A stretch of DNA of 56,024 bases. It comes from Planctomycetaceae bacterium (GTDB lineage Bacteria; Planctomycetota; Planctomycetia; Planctomycetales; Planctomycetaceae). Each line of letters opens with the position of its first letter. Position 1 is the first letter of the stretch. Location of the stretch: NCBI GenBank assembly GCA_043738805.1, contig JAYUFI010000999.1:1-56024 (forward strand), written 5' to 3'. Shown here one piece after another: positions 2 to 25,510 of this stretch. Both the position numbers and the translations under genes were made by a program. The notes under the pieces are model-generated. The model worked only from the letters and a program-made list of their open reading frames with translations, did not search any database and had not been told where the DNA came from.

Positions 2-775
2 TTCAAGATCGACCTCGTCGAACCCAAAGTCCCACTCGCTCAAAACGGTTCGATGCAATTGAAGGTTGTGGCCACTCGTAAAGAGGGCTTCAAAGCTCCG
101 ATCACGTTGCTGTTCCCATTCGCTCCGCCAGGGATCGGAGCGGCACCGTCGGTCACGATTCCCGAAGGCCAGAACGAAGCTGTGTACCCGATCAACGCCG
201 CCGCCAATGCACAGGTCGGTAAGTGGCGCGTCTTCGTGCTCGGCTATGCTGAAATCGGCGGAGCTGCGTATTCATCGACACAGCTCGGCAATTTGGAAGT
301 CAGTGCTCCGTGGGTCACTTTTGCCATGGAACGTGCCGCCGTCGAACAAGGCCAACCGACCGAAGTCGTCTGCAAGGTTGATGTGGCGACACCCTTTGAA
401 GGGAGCGCCAACGTGCAACTCGTCGCGCTGCCGAACAAGGTTCTCTCGCAACCACTGCAATTCACGAAGGACACGAAAGAACTGGTTTTCAAGGTCACGA
501 CCGAGAAGGACAGCCCCGCGGGTAAGCACGGCATCTTTGGCGTCGTGGCCATCACGGCGAACGGCGAACCAGTGACGCACAACGTCGGCGGTGCCGAACT
601 CCGGATTGACGTGCCGCTCCCGCCAAAGCCGAACACGCCTGTCCCGATGCCAATGCCAGCGGTCGCCGCTGTGACACCGACACCGATGCCGGCAGCAGCA
701 GCACCTCCAAAGCGACTCAGTCGATTAGAACAACTTCGCGAAGACGCCAAGGTGAAAGCCGTGCAAGGTAAGTAA
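2..775 (+). CDS. hypothetical secreted/surface protein, C-terminal part (5'-partial at window edge)
   Basis: The frame is open from nt 2 (FKIDLVEPKVPLAQNGS) into the listed 53..775 ORF. It has beta-strand-rich, Ig-like-looking segments followed by a Pro/Ala-rich tail (PLPPKPNTPVPMPMPAVAAVTPTPMPAAAAPP). It is co-directional with the next gene and ends 57 nt upstream of it. Confidence 0.6.
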   Translation, partial: FKIDLVEPKVPLAQNGSMQLKVVATRKEGFKAPITLLFPFAPPGIGAAPSVTIPEGQNEAVYPINAAANAQVGKWRVFVLGYAEIGGAAYSSTQLGNLEVSAPWVTFAMERAAVEQGQPTEVVCKVDVATPFEGSANVQLVALPNKVLSQPLQFTKDTKELVFKVTTEKDSPAGKHGIFGVVAITANGEPVTHNVGGAELRIDVPLPPKPNTPVPMPMPAVAAVTPTPMPAAAAPPKRLSRLEQLREDAKVKAVQGK

Positions 776-832
776 GCGAGATCACCAATTCCGCCAGCCA
801 GAGAAACCAGTTTTTCATTGAGGATCGAGCTC

Positions 833-3274
<2,442 letters not shown>

Positions 3275-3292
3275 TCGCGGAGTGACTTCGCC

Positions 3293-3655
3293 ATGCCGAA
3301 GCCTCAAAAAACTTGGCGTGAGAAACTCGTTGATGACAAGAGCCTGCCGAAGGTCTCAGTCATTGAGAGCAAGTTGTTGAAACGTTGGAGCGAAGGAACG
3401 GTCGCTATTCCGGCTTCGCGAGAAGTAGACGAGGTCATGAAGGCAGTCCCCAAGGGACGCCTAATCACGACAGTGGAGGTCCGAGAGAAGGTCGCCAAGA
3501 AGCACAATGCCACGGTGACCTGCCCGATGTGTTGCGGCATCGTTGCGGATTATGAGCGTTGTTTGGTTTCTGGCAGTTCGACCGGTCGAGCGAAGGTCAG
3601 CGGTCAGGCAAGCTCAAAGGAAAGACTTGCAAAATTTGCCGGTCGAGGTCGATAG
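3293..3655 (+). CDS. MGMT-family (methyltransferase DNA-binding-domain-like) small protein with aberrant C-terminus; possibly frameshifted
   Basis: The first ~85 aa (MPKPQKTWREKLVDDKSLPKVSVIE...VPKGRLITTVEVREKVAKKHNATVTCP) resemble, from memory, a widespread ~140-aa MGMT-family protein. After CPM the sequence turns into low-complexity text (SGSSTGRAKVSGQASS). Overlapping ORFs in other frames at 3543..3812 and 3559..3759 could hold the remnant C-terminus. Confidence 0.4.
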   Translation: MPKPQKTWREKLVDDKSLPKVSVIESKLLKRWSEGTVAIPASREVDEVMKAVPKGRLITTVEVREKVAKKHNATVTCPMCCGIVADYERCLVSGSSTGRAKVSGQASSKERLAKFAGRGR

Positions 3656-3783
3656 AGGAAGTGGCGAAGAGTTTCCGGAATGTGACGAGTTTTTTTCAAC
3701 ACAGAAGGACAAAGAATCTCGCAGGGGGTTCCTCCGTGCTCTCTGTGCCTCAGTGTTGAAGCTTGGGTTTGGAGTTGAAGGAC

Positions 3784-6477
3784 ATGACAGTGCAATTCAA
3801 GCAATGGTTTAGCAGTGTGGTTGTGCTTGGTGGGTTGTTGGGCGGGAGTTTCGTCGCCAACTCACAAGCGGCCGATGCTCCGAAGGTCACTTACGCCGAT
3901 CATGTTTTGCCGATTCTGCGAGCTAAGTGCTTGAGTTGCCACAATACGGATAAGAAAAGTGGTGGGCTCGATCTATCGAACTTCACGGCCGTAAAGACGG
4001 GTGGTGGGTCGGGCGAAATTTTTGATCCGGGTAATTCTGGTGCGAGCATTCTGTGGAAGGTGATCAACCACGAAGAAGAGCCGAAGATGCCGCCCAACAG
4101 CGACAAGCTGCCGGCTGACATGCTTGCGGTCATCAAAAATTGGATCGACGGCGGAGCACTCGAGACGTTGGGCAGCAAGGCGCTCGCCAGCAAGAAGCCG
4201 AAGATGGACTTGAAGCTCACCGCTGCTCCGACCGTGCGTCCAGAAGGTCCGCCGCCGATGCCGGGACGGATGAGCCTTGCTCCAGTTGTGCGCACGAAAA
4301 CGACGACGGCTATCACCAGCCTTGCGGTCAATCCGTGGTCGCCGCTCGTGGCCGTGCCCGGTCAGAAACAAGTTTTGCTGTACAACACGGCGACACTCGA
4401 ATTGCTCGGCGTACTGCCGTATCCGGAAGGGATTCCGCAGGTACTCAAGTTCAGCCGCAACGGGAGCCTGTTGATGGCCGCAGGCGGACATGCAGCCGCT
4501 CAGGGCAAGGTTGTCATCTTCAATGTGCGAACCGGTGAACGAGTCACCGAAGTTGGTGATGAACTCGACACGGTCCTTGCGGCAGATATCTCCCCCGATC
4601 AATCGCTGATCGCACTCGGTGGCTCCGCGAAGATGATTCGCGTGTACTCAATCGCCGATGGGGCGAAACTATGGGAGTCGAAGAAGCATACTGACTGGGT
4701 CACATCTTTGGCGTTCGCACCGGACAGCGTGTTGCTCGCGACTGGTGATCGGAACGGTGGAGCGTTCGTTTGGGAGGCCGAAACTGGTCGTGAATTCCAT
4801 ACGCTGAAAGCTCATACGGCAATGATTACTGGTTTCTCGTGGCGGCTCGATTCCAACATCCTCGCGTCGTGCAGCGAAGACACGACCGTGCGTCTGTGGG
4901 AGATGGAAAACGGCGGCAACGTGAAAGGCTGGGGAGCACACGGAGTCGGAGCATCTTCCGTCGATTTCGCTCGCGACGGCCGCATCATTTCCGCTGGCCG
5001 CGACCGAGTCGTGAAAATTTGGGATCAGAACGGTACTGCCGTGCGAGCCTTCGAGGCGATGGGAGACATCGCCCTGGCTTGCGTGATTTGTAACGAAACA
5101 AACCGCGTCATCGGAGCCGATTGGACCGGAGCGATCCGCGTCTGGAACGCCGTTGACGGCGTGAAGATCGGCGACCTAACACCGAACCCGCCGACGCTCG
5201 AAGAGCGTCTGGCCGCTGCGAATGCCGCCGTGCAAGCGACAACTGCCGAAGCGAAGACCGCAGCGGATGGATATGTCGCGGCTCAAGCCGCTGCTGACAA
5301 AGCGAAGGCCGATCTCAACACGGCCAACACGAAGATGGCTGAACTGACGGCGGTCGTTACCGACACGACTGCCGCTGCGGTGAAGAGCAAAGAAGTCATC
5401 GCCGTCGCGCAAGCTGTTCACGATGCTGCTGCGAAGGTTGTGGCGGTGCTCGATCCTGTTGTTCCGGCGTTGAACGACTCAGTGACGAAAGGGACGGAGG
5501 CCGCTGCGAAGAATGCTGAAGACAAAGAAGTTGCCGCCGCTGTCGCCGCGTTGAAAGCGTTGTTGGACAACCGAATCACCACGCTGACCAACAATAAGAA
5601 AGTTGTCGCGGACAAAGTCGTCGAATTAACCAAGGGCAAAGAACTACTCGTTGCTCAAGAAAAACTGATCACCGACAGTAACGTCGCGATCGAAGCGGTC
5701 AAAAAAACGATCCCCGATCTGACAGTTGCCGATAAAACGATGACTGAGAAAGCGGTCGCCGCGAAAGCGGTTGCCGACGCCGCGAACGTGAAGTTCGCCG
5801 CTTCTCAGCAGCAAGTCGCTCGCTGGACCGCTGAGATCGACTTCGCCATGAAATTGCGAGTGCTCAGTGAGAAGCAAGCTCTCGCCGCTCCGCTCGTCGC
5901 GATCTCAGAGGAAGCGCTCGCGGCTGTCAACAAGATGAAGGCTGATGTTGCTGCCGCTCAGCAAGTGGTCGCGACGTCCCAGACGAACGTCGATAACGCC
6001 AATGCCGCTGTCGCCGCTGCCAAGCAAGTTCTAAGCACCGCAACCGCTGAACATGCCGCGATCACCACCACCGTTGCTGGTCTCGAAGCCGCAATTCCGG
6101 CGCTCAAAGACGCTCAAGCCAAAGGAGCTGAAGCCGCCGCTAAAACTCCGACCGACAAGGAACTCGCCGCTGCTGCCGAGATGCTTAAGGCTGTTCTCGA
6201 AAAACAAATGGCAAGCTTAGCCGCGATGAAAGCCATGCTTGCCGAGAAGGCAGTCGCTGTTGAAAAGGCGAAAGTCATCGTCAGTGAAATGGAAAAGAAA
6301 ACCACTGATGCCGTCGCCGTACTCACCGCCGCGAATGCTAAAGTCGGCGAACTCACCGCCGCGATGAAGCCCATCGAAGACCAGTTCGCTTCGGCCAGAC
6401 AAGCGGCTGATCAAGCACTGCAACCCGTCACCGCGTTGCTGCAAGAGATTCAGAGGCTGAGAGAAGTGAAATTGTAG
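3784..6477 (+). CDS. PSCyt1 (planctomycete cytochrome-c-like) - WD40 repeat - Ala-rich coiled-coil protein
   Basis: ATG at 3784 is preceded by GGAG. There is a signal/TM segment (FSSVVVLGGLLGGSFVANSQA) and a CxxCH motif in VLPILRAKCLSCHNTDKKSGGLDLS. WD40-like repeats are visible (HTDWVTSLAFAPDS..LATGDRNGGAFVWE; HTAMITGFSWRLDS..LASCSEDTTVRLWE; ..RVVKIWD; ..AIRVWN). The last ~430 aa are alanine-rich and heptad-like. Confidence 0.88.
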   Translation: MTVQFKQWFSSVVVLGGLLGGSFVANSQAADAPKVTYADHVLPILRAKCLSCHNTDKKSGGLDLSNFTAVKTGGGSGEIFDPGNSGASILWKVINHEEEPKMPPNSDKLPADMLAVIKNWIDGGALETLGSKALASKKPKMDLKLTAAPTVRPEGPPPMPGRMSLAPVVRTKTTTAITSLAVNPWSPLVAVPGQKQVLLYNTATLELLGVLPYPEGIPQVLKFSRNGSLLMAAGGHAAAQGKVVIFNVRTGERVTEVGDELDTVLAADISPDQSLIALGGSAKMIRVYSIADGAKLWESKKHTDWVTSLAFAPDSVLLATGDRNGGAFVWEAETGREFHTLKAHTAMITGFSWRLDSNILASCSEDTTVRLWEMENGGNVKGWGAHGVGASSVDFARDGRIISAGRDRVVKIWDQNGTAVRAFEAMGDIALACVICNETNRVIGADWTGAIRVWNAVDGVKIGDLTPNPPTLEERLAAANAAVQATTAEAKTAADGYVAAQAAADKAKADLNTANTKMAELTAVVTDTTAAAVKSKEVIAVAQAVHDAAAKVVAVLDPVVPALNDSVTKGTEAAAKNAEDKEVAAAVAALKALLDNRITTLTNNKKVVADKVVELTKGKELLVAQEKLITDSNVAIEAVKKTIPDLTVADKTMTEKAVAAKAVADAANVKFAASQQQVARWTAEIDFAMKLRVLSEKQALAAPLVAISEEALAAVNKMKADVAAAQQVVATSQTNVDNANAAVAAAKQVLSTATAEHAAITTTVAGLEAAIPALKDAQAKGAEAAAKTPTDKELAAAAEMLKAVLEKQMASLAAMKAMLAEKAVAVEKAKVIVSEMEKKTTDAVAVLTAANAKVGELTAAMKPIEDQFASARQAADQALQPVTALLQEIQRLREVKL

Positions 6478-21425: not shown

Positions 21426-21427
21426 GC

Positions 21428-21973
21428 CTCGACTTCACGACGACGGAGGTTTGGACCGTTCACGGGCTTGTGACGATGTTCGTGCTCGTTGTCATGCAAC
21501 TGAAAACTCGCCGCATTGAAATCGCGGGAGTGACCGCCAATCCGGATAGCGCTTGGGTTCAGCAAATGGCTCGCAACCTGACTGACTCACAAGACGGATT
21601 CTTGAGGGACTCAACTCACATCCTCGTGGACCGCGACACCAAGTTCTTGCCGCTCCGTGAATTTCTGGAGACCAGCACTGAAATTGAACCGGTGGTGTTG
21701 CCGCCTCGAAGTCCGAATTGCAACGCTCATTTGGAGCGGTTCATGAAAAGCCTCAAAGCGGAAGCGTTGGAGCGGATGATCTTTTTCGGCGAAGGCTCGT
21801 TGCGGAACACTTTGAAAGAATACGCCGAGCATTACCACGCCGAACGAAATCATCAGGGTTTAGAAAACCAACTGATCGAGCCCGGCGACGAAGTCGGCGA
21901 GACGGCTGGCACCATCGAATGCCGCGAACGCTTGGGCGGACTGCTCCGCTACTACCACCGCCGAGCGGCTTGA
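21428..21973 (+). pseudogene. 5'-truncated DDE (rve/integrase-core) transposase gene; IS remnant
   Basis: Only the catalytic-core C-terminal part is present (DFTTTEVWTVHGLVTMFVLVVMQLKTRRIEIAGVT..DRDTKF..PRSPNCNAHLERFMKSLKAE..YHAERNHQGL). There is no HTH or N-terminal region. The homologous frame begins directly at the stop codon of the preceding methyltransferase gene. Confidence 0.8.
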
Positions 21974-22014
21974 ACTCAATGTCGCACCATCACGAGCTTG
22001 AGGCTTCATTCGTT

Positions 22015-23010
22015 CTATGAGCGAATGCAACAGAAGCGGTCTGTACCAACACCGTGAAAGCGACCGTGTTCCAGCCTGACGCACGCATAATTTGGCGATC
22101 CGCTCGCCACGATCGGCTGAGATTCCTTCGCGGCAACGACTTCAACTTCTGGTTTCCAAAGAACTTTGCCCCCGGCTGAGTTTTTTGACCGCACGCTAAA
22201 AGATTGTAGAGCTAAAAGAGACCCCTTATTTCCCCCCAGATAAGGCATGAAGTCCCGTCCGCCGACTTGATTCCCCGTTGTCAATTGGTAGGTGTTCAAG
22301 GCACCATCCACCACACCCAGCGTGGAGGCCGTCAGCGATAGCGCGGCCATCGTAGTCAACTCCTGACCCGCGAGGACCGCCGCCCATTCCGGGCCTGCCA
22401 AGCCGCCCGATGCCACGGTCGTCACCACCGCGATGGCGATCTCGATTTCCTTCGCGTGTTCTGAGACCCAGTGTTCCGCGTCCTTGAAGTTTTCCGAGAT
22501 CACATGCCCGGCGTCTTCATAGTTGTGAGCCACCGCGCTCGCCGCGTCTTCGACTCCTTCGACCAGATGCTTCGGCAGGTTCTTGATGAACCGCAGCGGG
22601 TGCGTCACCAATTCCTCGACCCCATCGATCGCCTTGTGAGCCAGCTTCTTGACACCACCCTGAATCTTGTGCCACAGCGAACTGAGCCAACTGTTCCCCG
22701 ACGGGTCAGCACCCGTCGCCGGATTGTTCGACCCATACCGATTGAGATTCGTATCCCCCGCGCTGAACCCGATCGGGTCTTCGCTCACAAACCGACCCAC
22801 CGCCGGGTCATACCACCGCGCCCGGTTGTATTGCAGACCCGTGTCGCTGTCGTACTCACGACCCGTGTAACCAAACAAGAACCCATCCGTGATCGGAGCC
22901 GTCGGCATCCCAAAGCTATCGAACACCCGATGATTGCCACTGGGGATCGACGTCACGTTCGTCGTCGTGTCGTGAACCGCCACATCCCGCACGCTCCCGT
23001 GCAAGCCCCA
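22015..23010 (-). CDS. Rhs-family core C-terminal fragment fused to a C-terminal toxin-like domain (orphan, lacks N-terminus and proper start)
   Basis: FGYTGREYDSDTGLQYNRARWYDPAVGRFVSEDPIGFSAGDTNLNRYGSNNPATGADPSGN is the RHS-repeat-associated core end, including PxxxxDPxG. The frame opens right after a TAG at 23011-23013, and the only start codon is a TTG. About 200 aa of non-core sequence follow. Confidence 0.85.
   Translation of the reverse strand, partial: WGLHGSVRDVAVHDTTTNVTSIPSGNHRVFDSFGMPTAPITDGFLFGYTGREYDSDTGLQYNRARWYDPAVGRFVSEDPIGFSAGDTNLNRYGSNNPATGADPSGNSWLSSLWHKIQGGVKKLAHKAIDGVEELVTHPLRFIKNLPKHLVEGVEDAASAVAHNYEDAGHVISENFKDAEHWVSEHAKEIEIAIAVVTTVASGGLAGPEWAAVLAGQELTTMAALSLTASTLGVVDGALNTYQLTTGNQVGGRDFMPYLGGNKGSLLALQSFSVRSKNSAGGKVLWKPEVEVVAAKESQPIVASGSPNYACVRLEHGRFHGVGTDRFCCIRS
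22156..22196. repeat. cassette junction repeat, copy 1
   Basis: CCAAAGAACTTTGCCCCCGGCTGAGTTTTTTGACCGCACGC. The 19-nt core CCGGCTGAGTTTTTTGACC at 22172-22190 is identical in all three copies. Confidence 0.85.
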
Positions 23011-23065
23011 CTAAATCGTATGAAAGTAAAGATGCCAGGAGACAACGATGGCTTGCTTTATCCAG

Positions 23066-23150
23066 AAACGGTTCCTGGCACCTTTTTATCATGGCACCTT
23101 TTTATCACCCAAAGAGCTTGACACCCGGCTGAGTTTTTTGACCTTACGGC
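23066..23150. repeat. cassette junction repeat, copy 2, preceded by a GGTTCCTGGCACCTTTT palindromic-element arm
   Basis: AAACGGTTCCTGGCACCTTTTTATCATGGCACCTTTTTATCACCCAAAGAGCTTGACACCCGGCTGAGTTTTTTGACCTTACGGC. The core is at 23125-23143. Confidence 0.85.
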
Positions 23151-23175
23151 ATCGCTCCACAACACCGTCTGACCG

Positions 23176-23550
23176 TCATTCGCCCAGACCTGTCCCTTTT
23201 TTCTGCCCCAAAATAGGATTGTCTTTCAGGTACATTCTCAAATCGGATTCCATTAATCCTGGACAACCTTTTGTTACCCACATCTCAAAGTCCTCTGCGT
23301 GAGATTGGTAATATCGTTCACCTACCCATTTCCCAGATTCTTGTGAGCCAAACCTATCGATATAGAGAAGGTGGTGAATTGCAAGAGTCAGGAGTTCGCC
23401 TTCTTCGTCATCTGGCAACTCAAAGTTACTAGTTTCACCACAATATGGGGAAGTCCCCATAACTAAATCATGAAGATCCCGTGGTCTTTCTTTTGCAAGC
23501 AATTGTACTGTAGACGCGTCTATATTTTTCATTCTGCTCTTTCGATTCAT
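23176..23550 (-). CDS. immunity-like protein (hypothetical, 124 aa) of cassette 2
   Basis: The ORF is AT-rich. Its ATG overlaps the stop of the upstream toxin-tip ORF (ATGA at 23547-23550). It is a small acidic cytoplasmic-type protein. I recognise no family, so the assignment is by context. Confidence 0.5.
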   Translation of the reverse strand: MNRKSRMKNIDASTVQLLAKERPRDLHDLVMGTSPYCGETSNFELPDDEEGELLTLAIHHLLYIDRFGSQESGKWVGERYYQSHAEDFEMWVTKGCPGLMESDLRMYLKDNPILGQKKGTGLGE

Positions 23551-23780
23551 TTGCTGAAGACCGCTTCAAGTGACGAAGAATTAAATTCAAGTTTCGTATA
23601 CTCCAGTTTTTGAGCAGTCTTTCCGAGATGAGTTCCCCAAACAGCCTGCGCTTCAGGCACTCCTTTATTGATCAAAGCTCGGTAAGTAGCTTGATTGTCG
23701 ATACCAAGTTGACCACCAATTGAGCGAACACGATTTGGGCCAATACTTTCAATTGCCAGAGAAAAGGTGTCAGGAACCAA
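23547..23780 (-). CDS. orphan toxin C-terminal fragment (cassette 2), no genuine start codon
   Basis: The ORF opens inside a repeat arm (TTG GTT CCT GAC ACC TTT = MVPDTF). It is translationally coupled to the downstream immunity-like ORF. I recognise no family. Confidence 0.4.
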   Translation of the reverse strand: MVPDTFSLAIESIGPNRVRSIGGQLGIDNQATYRALINKGVPEAQAVWGTHLGKTAQKLEYTKLEFNSSSLEAVFSK

Positions 23781-23867
23781 ATAATGGGATTTCTCCTATA
23801 AACGGTTCCTGACACCTTTTCTTTCCCAATGAGCTTGACGACCGGCTGAGTTTTTTGACCTCACGCC
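23761..23867. repeat. cassette junction repeat, copy 3, with a perfect 17-bp inverted pair of the GGTTCCTGACACCTTTT element
   Basis: AAAAGGTGTCAGGAACC (23762-23778) pairs with GGTTCCTGACACCTTTT (23804-23820). Then comes CCAATGAGCTTGACGACCGGCTGAGTTTTTTGACCTCACGCC, with the core at 23842-23860. Confidence 0.85.
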
Positions 23868-23888
23868 TTTTCTTCTCCTCCCCCCGCG

Positions 23889-24470
23889 TCAGAAGACTGT
23901 GACTTCAAACGCATTATCCGAAAAGCGTCTGACTATCCAATCTTGTAAGTACTGTCGCCGTGAAGCTTCTCTCGAAGTCGAAATAAACCCGAATCCAGAA
24001 TCGTCATGTGGGTATAATATTAAGTCGTGATCAGGCACAACGCAGAAGCAGTGCCCTCGAATTCCATCTACGGACATCACCGCCGAGAAGACAGTTCTAA
24101 TTATCCGCTCATTTATCCTTGGTATTTCTAATAATCCGTACCCGTCTAATCGATTCGCGCAATATTGCGTTGTATCTACCCGAGTCAATATGCTTTCTGC
24201 AGCCAGTGGATAAACGTGTTCACGCAACTCCCGATCTCCGAATCCATAATCATTCTTCAATTCAAAATCATTCCCCACAATAAACAAGTTGCTCACAATA
24301 GACTGACAATGAGTGTCAAATAAAGAGCTACTCAACAGAAGGTCGATCGCTTTCTCACAGACATCTATCGAAAATGCTTCCTTTCTCTCAAAAAAACCCA
24401 AGAAGCCCTGTGACATACTGTAGCTTTGCAGATTTACGTTTTTCTCAACAGTTTTAAGTGGAGACTCCAT
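23889..24470 (-). CDS. immunity-like protein (hypothetical, 193 aa) of cassette 1
   Basis: This is the most AT-rich ORF in the window; one 60-nt line counts 30% G+C. Its ATG lies 2 nt after the stop of the upstream toxin-tip ORF. I recognise no family. Confidence 0.5.
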   Translation of the reverse strand: MESPLKTVEKNVNLQSYSMSQGFLGFFERKEAFSIDVCEKAIDLLLSSSLFDTHCQSIVSNLFIVGNDFELKNDYGFGDRELREHVYPLAAESILTRVDTTQYCANRLDGYGLLEIPRINERIIRTVFSAVMSVDGIRGHCFCVVPDHDLILYPHDDSGFGFISTSREASRRQYLQDWIVRRFSDNAFEVTVF

Positions 24471-24472
24471 AT

Positions 24473-24826
24473 TTATTCATCCGTCTTGATAATAGTGCCA
24501 TCGTTGGCAACGGTGATCTTGTTGCTCTTGGTCGGCGCTTTGCCCTTTTTCGTCCCAACCTTCCATTCGCCGCCCTCAGATCGACTGTGGTTCGTGTGAC
24601 TACTCTCCCATACCTCGCCTGTGTTTACGTTCTTGTATTGCCCACTTCCATTTCTAGTAAAGTCTTCGGGGTGCGTAGCCGGCGTCCGTACTTTGTCACC
24701 AACAGGAGTGTTGCGTGCTTTTGCTTTTATCCCTGGGAGAATAAAAGGTGCCAGGAACCGTTTTAGGTCAATCGGCCATAAAAGGTTCCTGCCTTTGCAA
24801 ACTTTGTACACATTCACCCAGATCAT
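24473..24826 (-). CDS. small toxin-like protein / toxin tip (cassette 1), tail reminiscent of colicin-E3-type cytotoxic RNase domains (tentative)
   Basis: ATG at 24826 is preceded by AAGGGA. The first ~30 aa are encoded by palindromic-repeat DNA. The C-terminal GEVWESSHTNHSRSEGGEWKVGTKKGKAPTKSNKITVANDGTIIK resembles the ..YEWDSQHGELEGY..G.HLGSFDP.TG.QLK tail of colicin E3-like toxins (recalled from memory). Confidence 0.4.
   Translation of the reverse strand: MIWVNVYKVCKGRNLLWPIDLKRFLAPFILPGIKAKARNTPVGDKVRTPATHPEDFTRNGSGQYKNVNTGEVWESSHTNHSRSEGGEWKVGTKKGKAPTKSNKITVANDGTIIKTDE
24743..24796. repeat. degenerate inverted pair of the AAAAGGTGCCAGGAACC element
   Basis: AAAAGGTGCCAGGAACCGTTT (24743-24763) is paired with GGTTCCTGCCTTT (24784-24796). 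Confidence 0.6.
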
Positions 24827-25027
24827 AATTCCCTTCGGGTCACATCGCGAAGTGCCAATGGTTGGGGATCAAGCACTAGTCACAGATTCGCATCGGAAGT
24901 TCCCCCTTTATCGTTACCATTTTGCGAGTTTTTCACTCGTTGGGATTCGCTGATGTGTTTCGGTAGCATCCCTCGCTCTTGCGTGAGCTGTGGGGCGGGT
25001 CTTCTGGCCCGCTCGCGATTGAGTGTC

Positions 25028-25418: not shown

Positions 25419-25446
25419 CAGATCGCTGAGTCTTCTTGTAGGACGG

Positions 25447-25510
25447 GCACTCCTGCCCGTCTTTTCTGAAGAACACTGACGGGCAAGAGTGCCCGTCCTA
25501 CTTTTCAACA
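25447..25510. repeat. REPIN-like doublet, GTAGGACGGGCA family
   Basis: GTAGGACGGGCACTCCTGCCCGTC (25447-25470) is paired with GACGGGCAAGAGTGCCCGTCCTAC (25487-25510). They are inverted with heads outward and lie between the yhdT-like and symporter genes. Confidence 0.8.

Follow-up and report, generated by a model that had tools for sequence, protein, structure and literature searches.

A probable decayed orphan Rhs toxin/immunity array, reworked by two mobile elements, in a planctomycete genome

Introduction

Why would a planctomycete carry a row of small, Rhs-type toxin and immunity-like genes with no full-length rhs gene beside them? This question is raised by an island at approximately 21426-24893 in a 56,024-nt stretch of DNA from a Planctomycetaceae bacterium (contig JAYUFI010000999.1, assembly GCA_043738805.1); this stretch, referred to here as the window, is the whole scope of all in-window counts given below. 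The original prediction described the island as an array of orphan toxin tips with immunity-like genes beside an insertion sequence (IS) remnant, acting either as a silent toxin reservoir or as a set of independent toxin/immunity pairs. The presence of an accessory array with low G+C, in which Rhs-type C-terminal modules lie next to an IS remnant, was borne out by the computational analysis reported here. The island is probably a decayed orphan Rhs toxin/immunity array that the planctomycete acquired horizontally and that two mobile elements later reworked: an IS481/IS3-like IS, and a family of repetitive extragenic palindromic (REP) hairpins with their REP-associated tyrosine transposase (RAYT). 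As such, it is an accessory island of an expected and fairly ordinary kind, with some new parts. To our knowledge, polymorphic-toxin loci in Planctomycetes have been little studied. Metagenome and genome contigs retrieved for comparison, and proteins retrieved likewise, carry locus labels (L001-L150) and protein labels (P0002, P0003, and P0126), respectively.

Results and discussion

A low-G+C island without a parent rhs gene

Five minus-strand open reading frames (ORFs) attributed to the island were confirmed at 24473-24826, 23889-24470, 23547-23780, 23176-23550, and 22015-23010, including the 2-nt gap between the first and second ORFs and the ATGA overlap between the third and fourth. The accompanying dip in base composition was likewise recovered, with a G+C content of 0.41-0.46 across 23100-24600, as compared to 0.55-0.60 in the flanks (300-nt windows). 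By feature, G+C content is 0.423 and 0.424 for the two immunity-like genes, imm1 and imm2, 0.434 for the second toxin tip (tip 2), 0.506 for the domain of the first (tip 1), and 0.605 for module 3. The low values of 0.42-0.43, set against 0.555 for the full window, are foreign.

No second Rhs core, no long Rhs ORF, and no ORF of more than 904 aa occurs anywhere in the window, in agreement with the earlier statement that a parent rhs gene is visible on neither side of the island; the large ORFs that were checked (818, 904, 496, 490, and 440 aa) encode ordinary planctomycete or housekeeping proteins. Nor did any of the small island proteins, already described as belonging to no recognizable family, match an entry in Pfam, NCBIfam, PHROGs, or PADLOC.

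Module 1 and its homologues behind Rhs core ends

In module 1, tip 1 (24473-24727, minus strand) is by homology a complete Rhs-type C-terminal toxin domain of ~84 aa, and imm1 (23889-24470, minus strand; 193 aa, intact) is its immunity-like partner. Among 5.8 billion proteins, just two relatives of tip 1 were found, P0002 (74% identical) and P0003 (63% identical), both of which are C-termini located behind Rhs/YD core ends on two unrelated metagenome contigs. In P0003, an Rhs core remnant ('SSDPIGLAGNNPTLYGYV..WLDVWGL') lies directly ahead of the tip 1 domain; its contig, L001, is low in G+C, and P0003 comes there behind an Rhs core end that has a tip and an immunity gene of its own, which makes this a classical orphan array. 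In P0002 (L148), the domain comes after 'RFTSPDPVG..NPYRYIDPD' and a linker that we take to be pre-toxin-like. The next ORF encodes an imm1 homologue in both L001 (34% identity over the full length) and L148 (53% over the 40 aa available). Because an imm1 homologue trails the tip 1 homologue in both contigs, tip 1 and imm1 are identified by homology as a conserved Rhs-type toxin/immunity pair, as the original prediction had proposed for this module.

The tip 1 domain is preceded in the island by sequence of another origin. While the 117-aa ORF at 24473-24826 and the 77-aa ORF of module 2 are both present as described, the first 33 codons of the former and the first ~10 codons of the latter are not toxin sequence. 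In the 117-aa ORF, these codons belong to a REP hairpin and a RAYT remnant, and homology to the Rhs C-termini begins at K34, 16 nt past a repeat arm. Tip 1 has therefore kept essentially the whole toxin domain and none of the Rhs core.

The AlphaFold2 (AF2) model of tip 1 is all-beta, with a predicted local distance difference test (pLDDT) score of 78. A Foldseek search against PDB and BFVD returned nothing under E=0.1, and a PDB profile search returned MvaT alone, at E=0.39. No curated family was found for imm1, for which the search gave a weak DUF3885 match (E=0.13). With three members among 5.8 billion proteins, a compact domain of ~84 residues, and no detectable fold relative, tip 1/imm1 would represent a new toxin/immunity family.

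Two observations concern this family but not its classification. First, residues ~62-90 of tip 1 (24530-24640) locally resemble the C-terminal DNA-binding region of MvaT (PDB 2MXE; 'QYKN..TGEV.E....NH....EWK'), a likeness that is not significant at E=0.39 and that accompanies a predicted fold that is all-beta. Second, at 180-290 of L148, the YD core end and the linker plus toxin share one frame that is broken by a single TGA, located where the DPxG motif requires a glycine ('NPYRYIDPD*KIPID'); this TGA would fit either genetic code 25 (TGA = glycine) or a pseudogene.

Module 2 and the unlikely case for free-standing toxin-antitoxin pairs

Module 2 consists of tip 2 (23547-23780, minus strand), a 77-aa ORF whose TTG start lies within a REP arm, and imm2 (23176-23550, minus strand), a 124-aa ORF that is immunity-like by position. 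The ~10 leading codons of tip 2 are REP-hairpin sequence, its frame opens inside the hairpin loop, its own sequence extends only from 23751 downward, and public gene callers left it uncalled. When tip 2 joined to imm2 was used as the query against the same 5.8 billion proteins, only the query itself was retrieved; neither protein had a PDB or family match, and the AF2 single-sequence model of imm2 (all-helical, pLDDT 54) was unusable. Tip 2 possibly derives from the 3' part of a toxin gene. From position, overlap, and G+C only, we infer that module 2 combines a toxin fragment with an immunity gene; the two ORFs originally described here are real, but their reading as a toxin tip with its immunity gene has no homologue to support it and is a guess from context.

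The close spacing within modules 1 and 2 invites the explanation that they are independent toxin-antitoxin-like addiction pairs that stabilize the island rather than serve in competition, with translation starting at the ATG at 24826 for tip 1 and at the TTG at 23780 for tip 2, and with each tip restrained by the immunity protein encoded downstream. The ATG-started 117-aa ORF does hold the whole tip 1 domain only 2 nt from imm1, tip 2 and imm2 do overlap through ATGA, and the island is identical across three samples. However, the 33 N-terminal codons of the first ORF, being RAYT/REP sequence, constitute an accidental frame, the start of tip 2 falls inside a stable hairpin arm in an ORF skipped by gene callers, and no promoter-like site was found upstream of either tip (a weak test for planctomycetes). 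Furthermore, both tip 1 homologues are YD/Rhs C-termini and not free-standing toxins, so that addiction is an unlikely role for these modules.

Module 3 and the weak case for a silent reservoir

The 329-aa ORF of module 3 is a composite. It matches the Rhs-associated core model TIGR03696 (E=3.5e-20) over residues 30-103 and opens with the C-terminal 104 residues of an Rhs core (22696-23007, minus strand), from 'GLHGSVRDV' to 'DPSG'. Next come ~152 residues from the start of a long C-terminal extension (22238-22695, minus strand), a part which is helical and hydrophobic and stops after 'GGRDFMPYL'. A 41-nt filler with a G+C content of 0.415 (22197-22237) lies between the cut extension and the IS end, and the last ~60 codons, from 22193 down, are the IS inverted repeat read through.

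What the extension once led to can be proposed from a single informative relative, P0126 (860 aa; L142:5236-7818), which was recovered in an exhaustive HMMER search with the non-core part of the module (22195-22695). Residues 108-259 of P0126 align to query residues 1-153, and both copies begin at the same core breakpoint ('GLHGSVRDV'). P0126 runs ~750 residues beyond DPSG, and its C-terminus matches PDB 8CM0 at E=8.9e-59, the Rhs2 toxin domain of Serratia marcescens, which is an atypical HNH DNase (bioRxiv 10.1101/2025.10.28.685041). A 174-aa immunity-like ORF follows P0126 in L142, and the right end of the IS is located ~160 nt further on. The window is 81% identical to L142 7043-7812 at the nucleotide level. 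Since this homology stops at 22238 and the IS end begins at 22196/22193, the window lacks ~2.45 kb present in L142, where this stretch encodes what remains of the extension together with the DNase domain and also contains the immunity gene. By this comparison, module 3 is an orphan Rhs fragment without a toxin domain or immunity gene, and not a toxin tip. The truncated Rhs core end had been recognized correctly from the start, while the supposed ~200-aa toxin domain behind it is instead the N-terminal fifth of a long extension.

These features bear directly on the proposal that the tips form a silent reservoir, awaiting recombination with a full-length rhs gene at another genomic site. Such a mechanism is documented in Salmonella, where the core-coding homology retained by orphan modules allows them to recombine with the main rhs gene and so to be re-armed (PMC3967940). 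Module 3 has kept 312 nt of core-coding sequence, and related cores exist in the lineage, as indicated by a fragment in L142 that is 95% identical over 117 nt. Modules 1 and 2, on the other hand, have no core homology at all, and therefore could not be re-armed by the classical recombination route. The sole core-bearing module has neither toxin domain nor immunity gene, and there is no rhs gene in the 56 kb. The reservoir suggested by the original prediction is therefore weak and, in our estimate, just as improbable as addiction.

Further observations were made on the relatives of module 3. Between DPSG and the Rhs2CT-like DNase, P0126 contains ~600 residues of uncharacterized sequence with hydrophobic helical and acidic stretches, a spacing of unusual length for the C-terminal region of an Rhs protein. 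The core-end fragment mentioned above, the second in L142 (921-1244), corresponds to window positions 22733-22848. In three independent assemblies, the L142-type contig ends ≤45 nt upstream of the orphan Rhs start, suggesting a repeat at that position.

An IS terminal repeat trails every module

Several features of the island had gone unnoticed in the original prediction, namely its island-specific repeats, the composite IS and REP scars formed by them, and a RAYT fragment. The IS itself is represented by a remnant at 21426-22196 (plus strand), with part of an rve transposase gene at 21429-21973 and an intact right inverted repeat at ~22143-22193. The 3' two-thirds of an IS481/IS3-like DDE (rve) gene are kept, while the left end of the element and the N-terminal part of the gene are deleted. 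The plus-strand ORF at 21470-21973 is an rve_3 fragment (E=3e-10), its frame can be traced back to 21429 ('LSLDFTTTEVWTVHGLVTMFVLVV'), and the deletion point coincides with the methyltransferase stop codon, exactly as had been described for the 5'-deleted transposase gene. The best-scoring model, IS481, gave matches of 4.8e-11 (window remnant) and 5.5e-14; because all family scores fell below curated cut-offs, the IS481/IS3-like assignment is approximate. This transposase family is abundant in Planctomycetes.

A 19-mer, GGTCAAAAAACTCAGCCGG (minus strand), occurs exactly three times in the 56 kb (0.02 expected), once after each module, at 23842-23860, 23125-23143, and 22172-22190, the last of which runs on into the transposase remnant. 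The IS remnant is collinear with IS copies in L008 (a Planctomyces metagenome-assembled genome), L142, and L139. The combination of this box with the transposase gene was found once in L008 and twice in L142, and the full copy in L139, of ~1.48 kb, has the box at both ends as ~50-nt inverted repeats. The repeated box can thus be identified, by collinearity, as the terminal inverted repeat of an IS481/IS3-like element. A widespread repeat was rejected, as the box matched only 11 times among 185,579 species genomes, with similarity that reached into the IS in L008 only. A miniature inverted-repeat transposable element with two IS ends was also rejected because the box has no inverted partner in the window at ≤6 mismatches. 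Within the IS itself (window 22100-22193, L142, L008, and L139), a second CTCAGCCG motif is located ~60 nt inside the terminal repeat (AAAAACTCAGCCGG ... GAAATCTCAGCCGAT) and may be a second transposase-binding site.

REP hairpins and a RAYT remnant

The second mobile element is a hairpin whose 16-nt arm, AAAGGTGYCAGGAACC, occurs four times in the window and only in the island (0.08 expected). The three hairpin copies of the window are likewise confined to the island. The arms of the family, AAAGGTGTCAGGAACC ... GGTTCCTGACACCTTT, enclose very variable loops, and the outer stem is often lengthened by variable complementary sequence. The hairpin is not peculiar to toxin loci. At least 120 contigs carrying it were found in a full-palindrome metagenome scan, and the loci among the matches listed have G+C contents of 34-77% and come from soil, sediment, and ocean samples. 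The invariance of the arms is partly a matter of construction, since the search pattern demanded exact 16-nt arms.

REP/REPIN elements have been described as inverted arms with a variable spacer that fold into a hairpin, with arms flanking a Y1/HUH transposase gene, the RAYT (Bertels and Rainey, 2011; PMC3116915, PMC3337134). In L142, inverted arms at 3042 and 3819 enclose a Y1_Tnp gene (3079-3759), which matches Pfam Y1_Tnp (1.7e-17) and the NCBIfam REP-associated tyrosine transposase model REP_Tyr_transpos (6e-18), in the latter case below the curated cut-off (65 vs 80 bits). Full RAYT homologues, 51-64% identical, were found in four of the randomly retrieved hairpin loci; three of these (L050, L115, and L126) have arms or full hairpins on both sides of the gene, while the upstream hairpin alone was seen in the fourth (L097). 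In the window, a RAYT pseudogene fragment ('MRICD*CLIPNHWHFAM*PEGNYDLGECV'; 24807-24893, minus strand) lies just upstream of the first hairpin and of module 1. It spans 29 codons with two in-frame stops and the HUH motif, corresponds to residues 49-76 of the L142 RAYT (tblastn), and aligns at 24837-24878 to L142 3559-3600 (blastn). Because the arms flank RAYT genes and the window itself holds a RAYT fragment, the hairpins are assigned to the REP/REPIN type in the sense of Bertels and Rainey.

Island and described elements share the arm and spacer layout and the RAYT flanking. Many extragenic copies are a further trait of REPs; of this hairpin, three copies are present in the window, and at least 120 metagenome contigs carry it. 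Described REPs are mostly lineage-specific, in contrast to the exact 16-nt arms found here, which recur on contigs of 34-77% G+C, with the in-window copies being restricted to the island. The hairpin was absent from Rfam and from papers with searchable text, and its identification with a known RNA was rejected, as Rfam gave sub-threshold, miRNA-like hairpin matches only. One by-product of this analysis, possibly of wider interest, is a REP family whose arms are invariant across highly diverse metagenome contigs.

Composite junctions and a proposed stacking model

The IS and REP sequences meet at the module junctions. At the first junction (J1), the IS inverted repeat is reduced to its outermost 41 nt, a solo scar (23827-23867, minus strand; 97.6% identical to the L142 IS end) that starts 21 nt past the imm1 stop codon and is joined to an intact REP/REPIN hairpin (23752-23830) with 27-nt arms, a 25-nt gap, and a very stable DNA fold (-27.2 kcal/mol, z=-5.85). 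At J2, the outermost ~39 nt of the IS (23110-23148, minus strand; 92% identical to the L142 IS end) start 27 nt past the imm2 stop codon, followed by a decayed hairpin (23033-23090), in which the left arm is exact (23066-23086) and the right arm degenerate (z=-0.7). Alignment indicates that J1 and J2 are paralogous over box, arms, and loop, with the IS scar fused to the hairpin at the same point. Upstream of module 1, J0 comprises a REP-type hairpin (24744-24798; fold z=-2.5) whose left arm is degenerate and whose right arm (24744-24759) is exact, lying 16 nt upstream of the first homologous tip 1 codon. Every module is trailed, in the same orientation, by the IS inverted repeat or its outermost ~41 nt.

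Read along the minus strand, the order is the RAYT remnant, a REP hairpin, tip 1 and imm1, an IS scar with its REP hairpin, tip 2 and imm2, a second IS scar with its REP hairpin, the Rhs core end with the cut extension, and finally the IS right end with the 5'-deleted transposase gene. L142 offers a parallel at 650-4560, where three longer IS remnants in the same orientation each follow a module and are interleaved with the second Rhs core-end fragment, a 151-aa ORF without a family match, and an intact REP-RAYT-REP unit. Because same-orientation IS ends follow each module, as paralleled in L142, it is suggested as a hypothesis that recombination between directly repeated IS copies stacked the modules. 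The IS copies would later have collapsed to 41-nt scars, a process of which L142 would show a less advanced state.

An even more doubtful extension of this model is that the composite junction is a portable joining site for the stacking of core-less toxin/immunity cassettes, with the joining done by DDE or Y1 transposases or by recombination at repeated IS copies; if true, it would be a transposon-driven counterpart of integron-like clusters of recombinase-associated acquired interbacterial defense (rAID), independent of Rhs core homology. A reading of the junctions as integron attC sites was rejected, with the box being collinear with an IS end, the arms flanking RAYT genes, and no integrase being present. 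Least probable of all is an active cassette-acquisition platform, likened to integron attC sites or to the repetitive intergenic sequences of Bacteroidales rAID-1, in which a transposase inserts and excises cassettes at the composite junction: the same element, in the same orientation, does bound every module, J1 and J2 are paralogous including the loop, the cassettes are low in G+C, and rAID-1 clusters do have repetitive intergenic sequences and skewed G+C (10.1101/471110), but only two to three units exist, decay is visible in J2 and J0, and neither the island nor its immediate surroundings contain an intact gene for a recombinase or transposase, with IS and RAYT both truncated. In addition, the box-plus-hairpin composite was not found in the ~120 hairpin loci listed or in related IS loci.

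A possible path from weapon locus to defensive locus

Under the favored interpretation of a decayed, acquired, and mobile-element-reworked orphan array, the tips would not be deployable, as an Rhs shell, a delivery domain, and a proper start codon are all missing. They are most likely inert, because modules 1 and 2 have no core homology, module 3 has no toxin, and no main gene exists in the 56 kb. Orphan immunity genes have been demonstrated to be protective (10.1101/471110), and by analogy the most likely surviving function of the island would be the protection conferred by imm1, and perhaps imm2, against the matching toxins of competitors. The locus illustrates how an array may decay: IS and REP/RAYT elements can remove core homology and toxin domains while sparing immunity genes, one of the ways in which a locus used as a weapon could become purely defensive.

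Several observations weigh against this interpretation. The retrieved copies of the island, from three samples, all belong to the same strain and are identical. The stacking model rests on orientation and on one relative (L142), and other truncated IS copies (L149 and L150) have no link to Rhs. In module 3, the 41-nt filler keeps the deletion from directly abutting the IS end, and module 2, for which no homologue was found, may be neither toxin nor immunity gene.

Comparison with known systems

Orphan rhs-CT/rhsI modules in Enterobacteriaceae, such as Salmonella Typhimurium STM0292 (PMC3967940), share with the island the tandem start-less tips, each with a small immunity gene, and an off-host G+C content; module 3 also keeps a core stretch, as classical orphans do. 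In contrast to those systems, the island lacks an upstream main rhs gene, has no core sequence in modules 1 and 2, carries its core-bearing module last rather than first, and has IS/REP scars as junctions. Taking the hallmarks of orphan modules in turn, a core end (TIGR03696, DPxG) precedes the extension of module 3 and is missing from modules 1 and 2; tip 1 and the module 3 extension, but not tip 2, occur at Rhs/YD C-termini elsewhere; and a paired downstream immunity gene is present in module 1 and absent from module 3, while module 2 has a candidate by adjacency with an ATGA overlap only.

The likeness to the Rhs2 HNH DNase and its immunity protein RhsI2 from Serratia marcescens Db10 (PDB 8CM0) lies in P0126 and the small ORF after it, as opposed to the window copy, which has neither the DNase domain nor the immunity gene. 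P0126 also differs from Serratia Rhs2 in having the ~600-residue extension before the DNase.

The rAID-1 clusters of Bacteroidales (Ross et al., 10.1101/471110) are likewise low-G+C orphan immunity arrays with repetitive intergenic sequences, and the likely benefit, protection from the toxins of other bacteria, would by analogy be shared. At J1 and J2, a conserved repeat does separate co-oriented, low-G+C cassettes. Unlike rAID-1, the island has no XerD-like tyrosine recombinase and only two candidate immunity genes, its repeats are IS/REP debris rather than dedicated sites, and its host is a planctomycete.

With IS481/IS3-like elements, the island IS shares an rve DDE transposase, ~50-nt inverted repeats starting with 5'-TG, and a length of ~1.5 kb (L139); it departs from the typical pattern in that, of its three copies in the island, two survive only as 41-nt solo ends joined to a REP hairpin.

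Genomic surroundings

The island is neighbored by genes for a methyltransferase, a tail-specific protease, and DUF997, SSF, and MlrC proteins, among which no IntI or XerD-like recombinase gene was found. The DNA of the window is planctomycete in character. Proteins encoded elsewhere in it include PSCyt1/2 and PSD1 domains, and one gene combines N_methyl with SBP_bac_10. Between the DUF997 and SSF transporter genes, a near-perfect 24-nt inverted repeat with GTAG at its start (GTAGGACGGGCACTCCTGCCCGTC / GACGGGCAAGAGTGCCCGTCCTAC) is located at 25438-25501; it is present as a single copy in the window and may act as a terminator or attenuator or else represent another type of REP.

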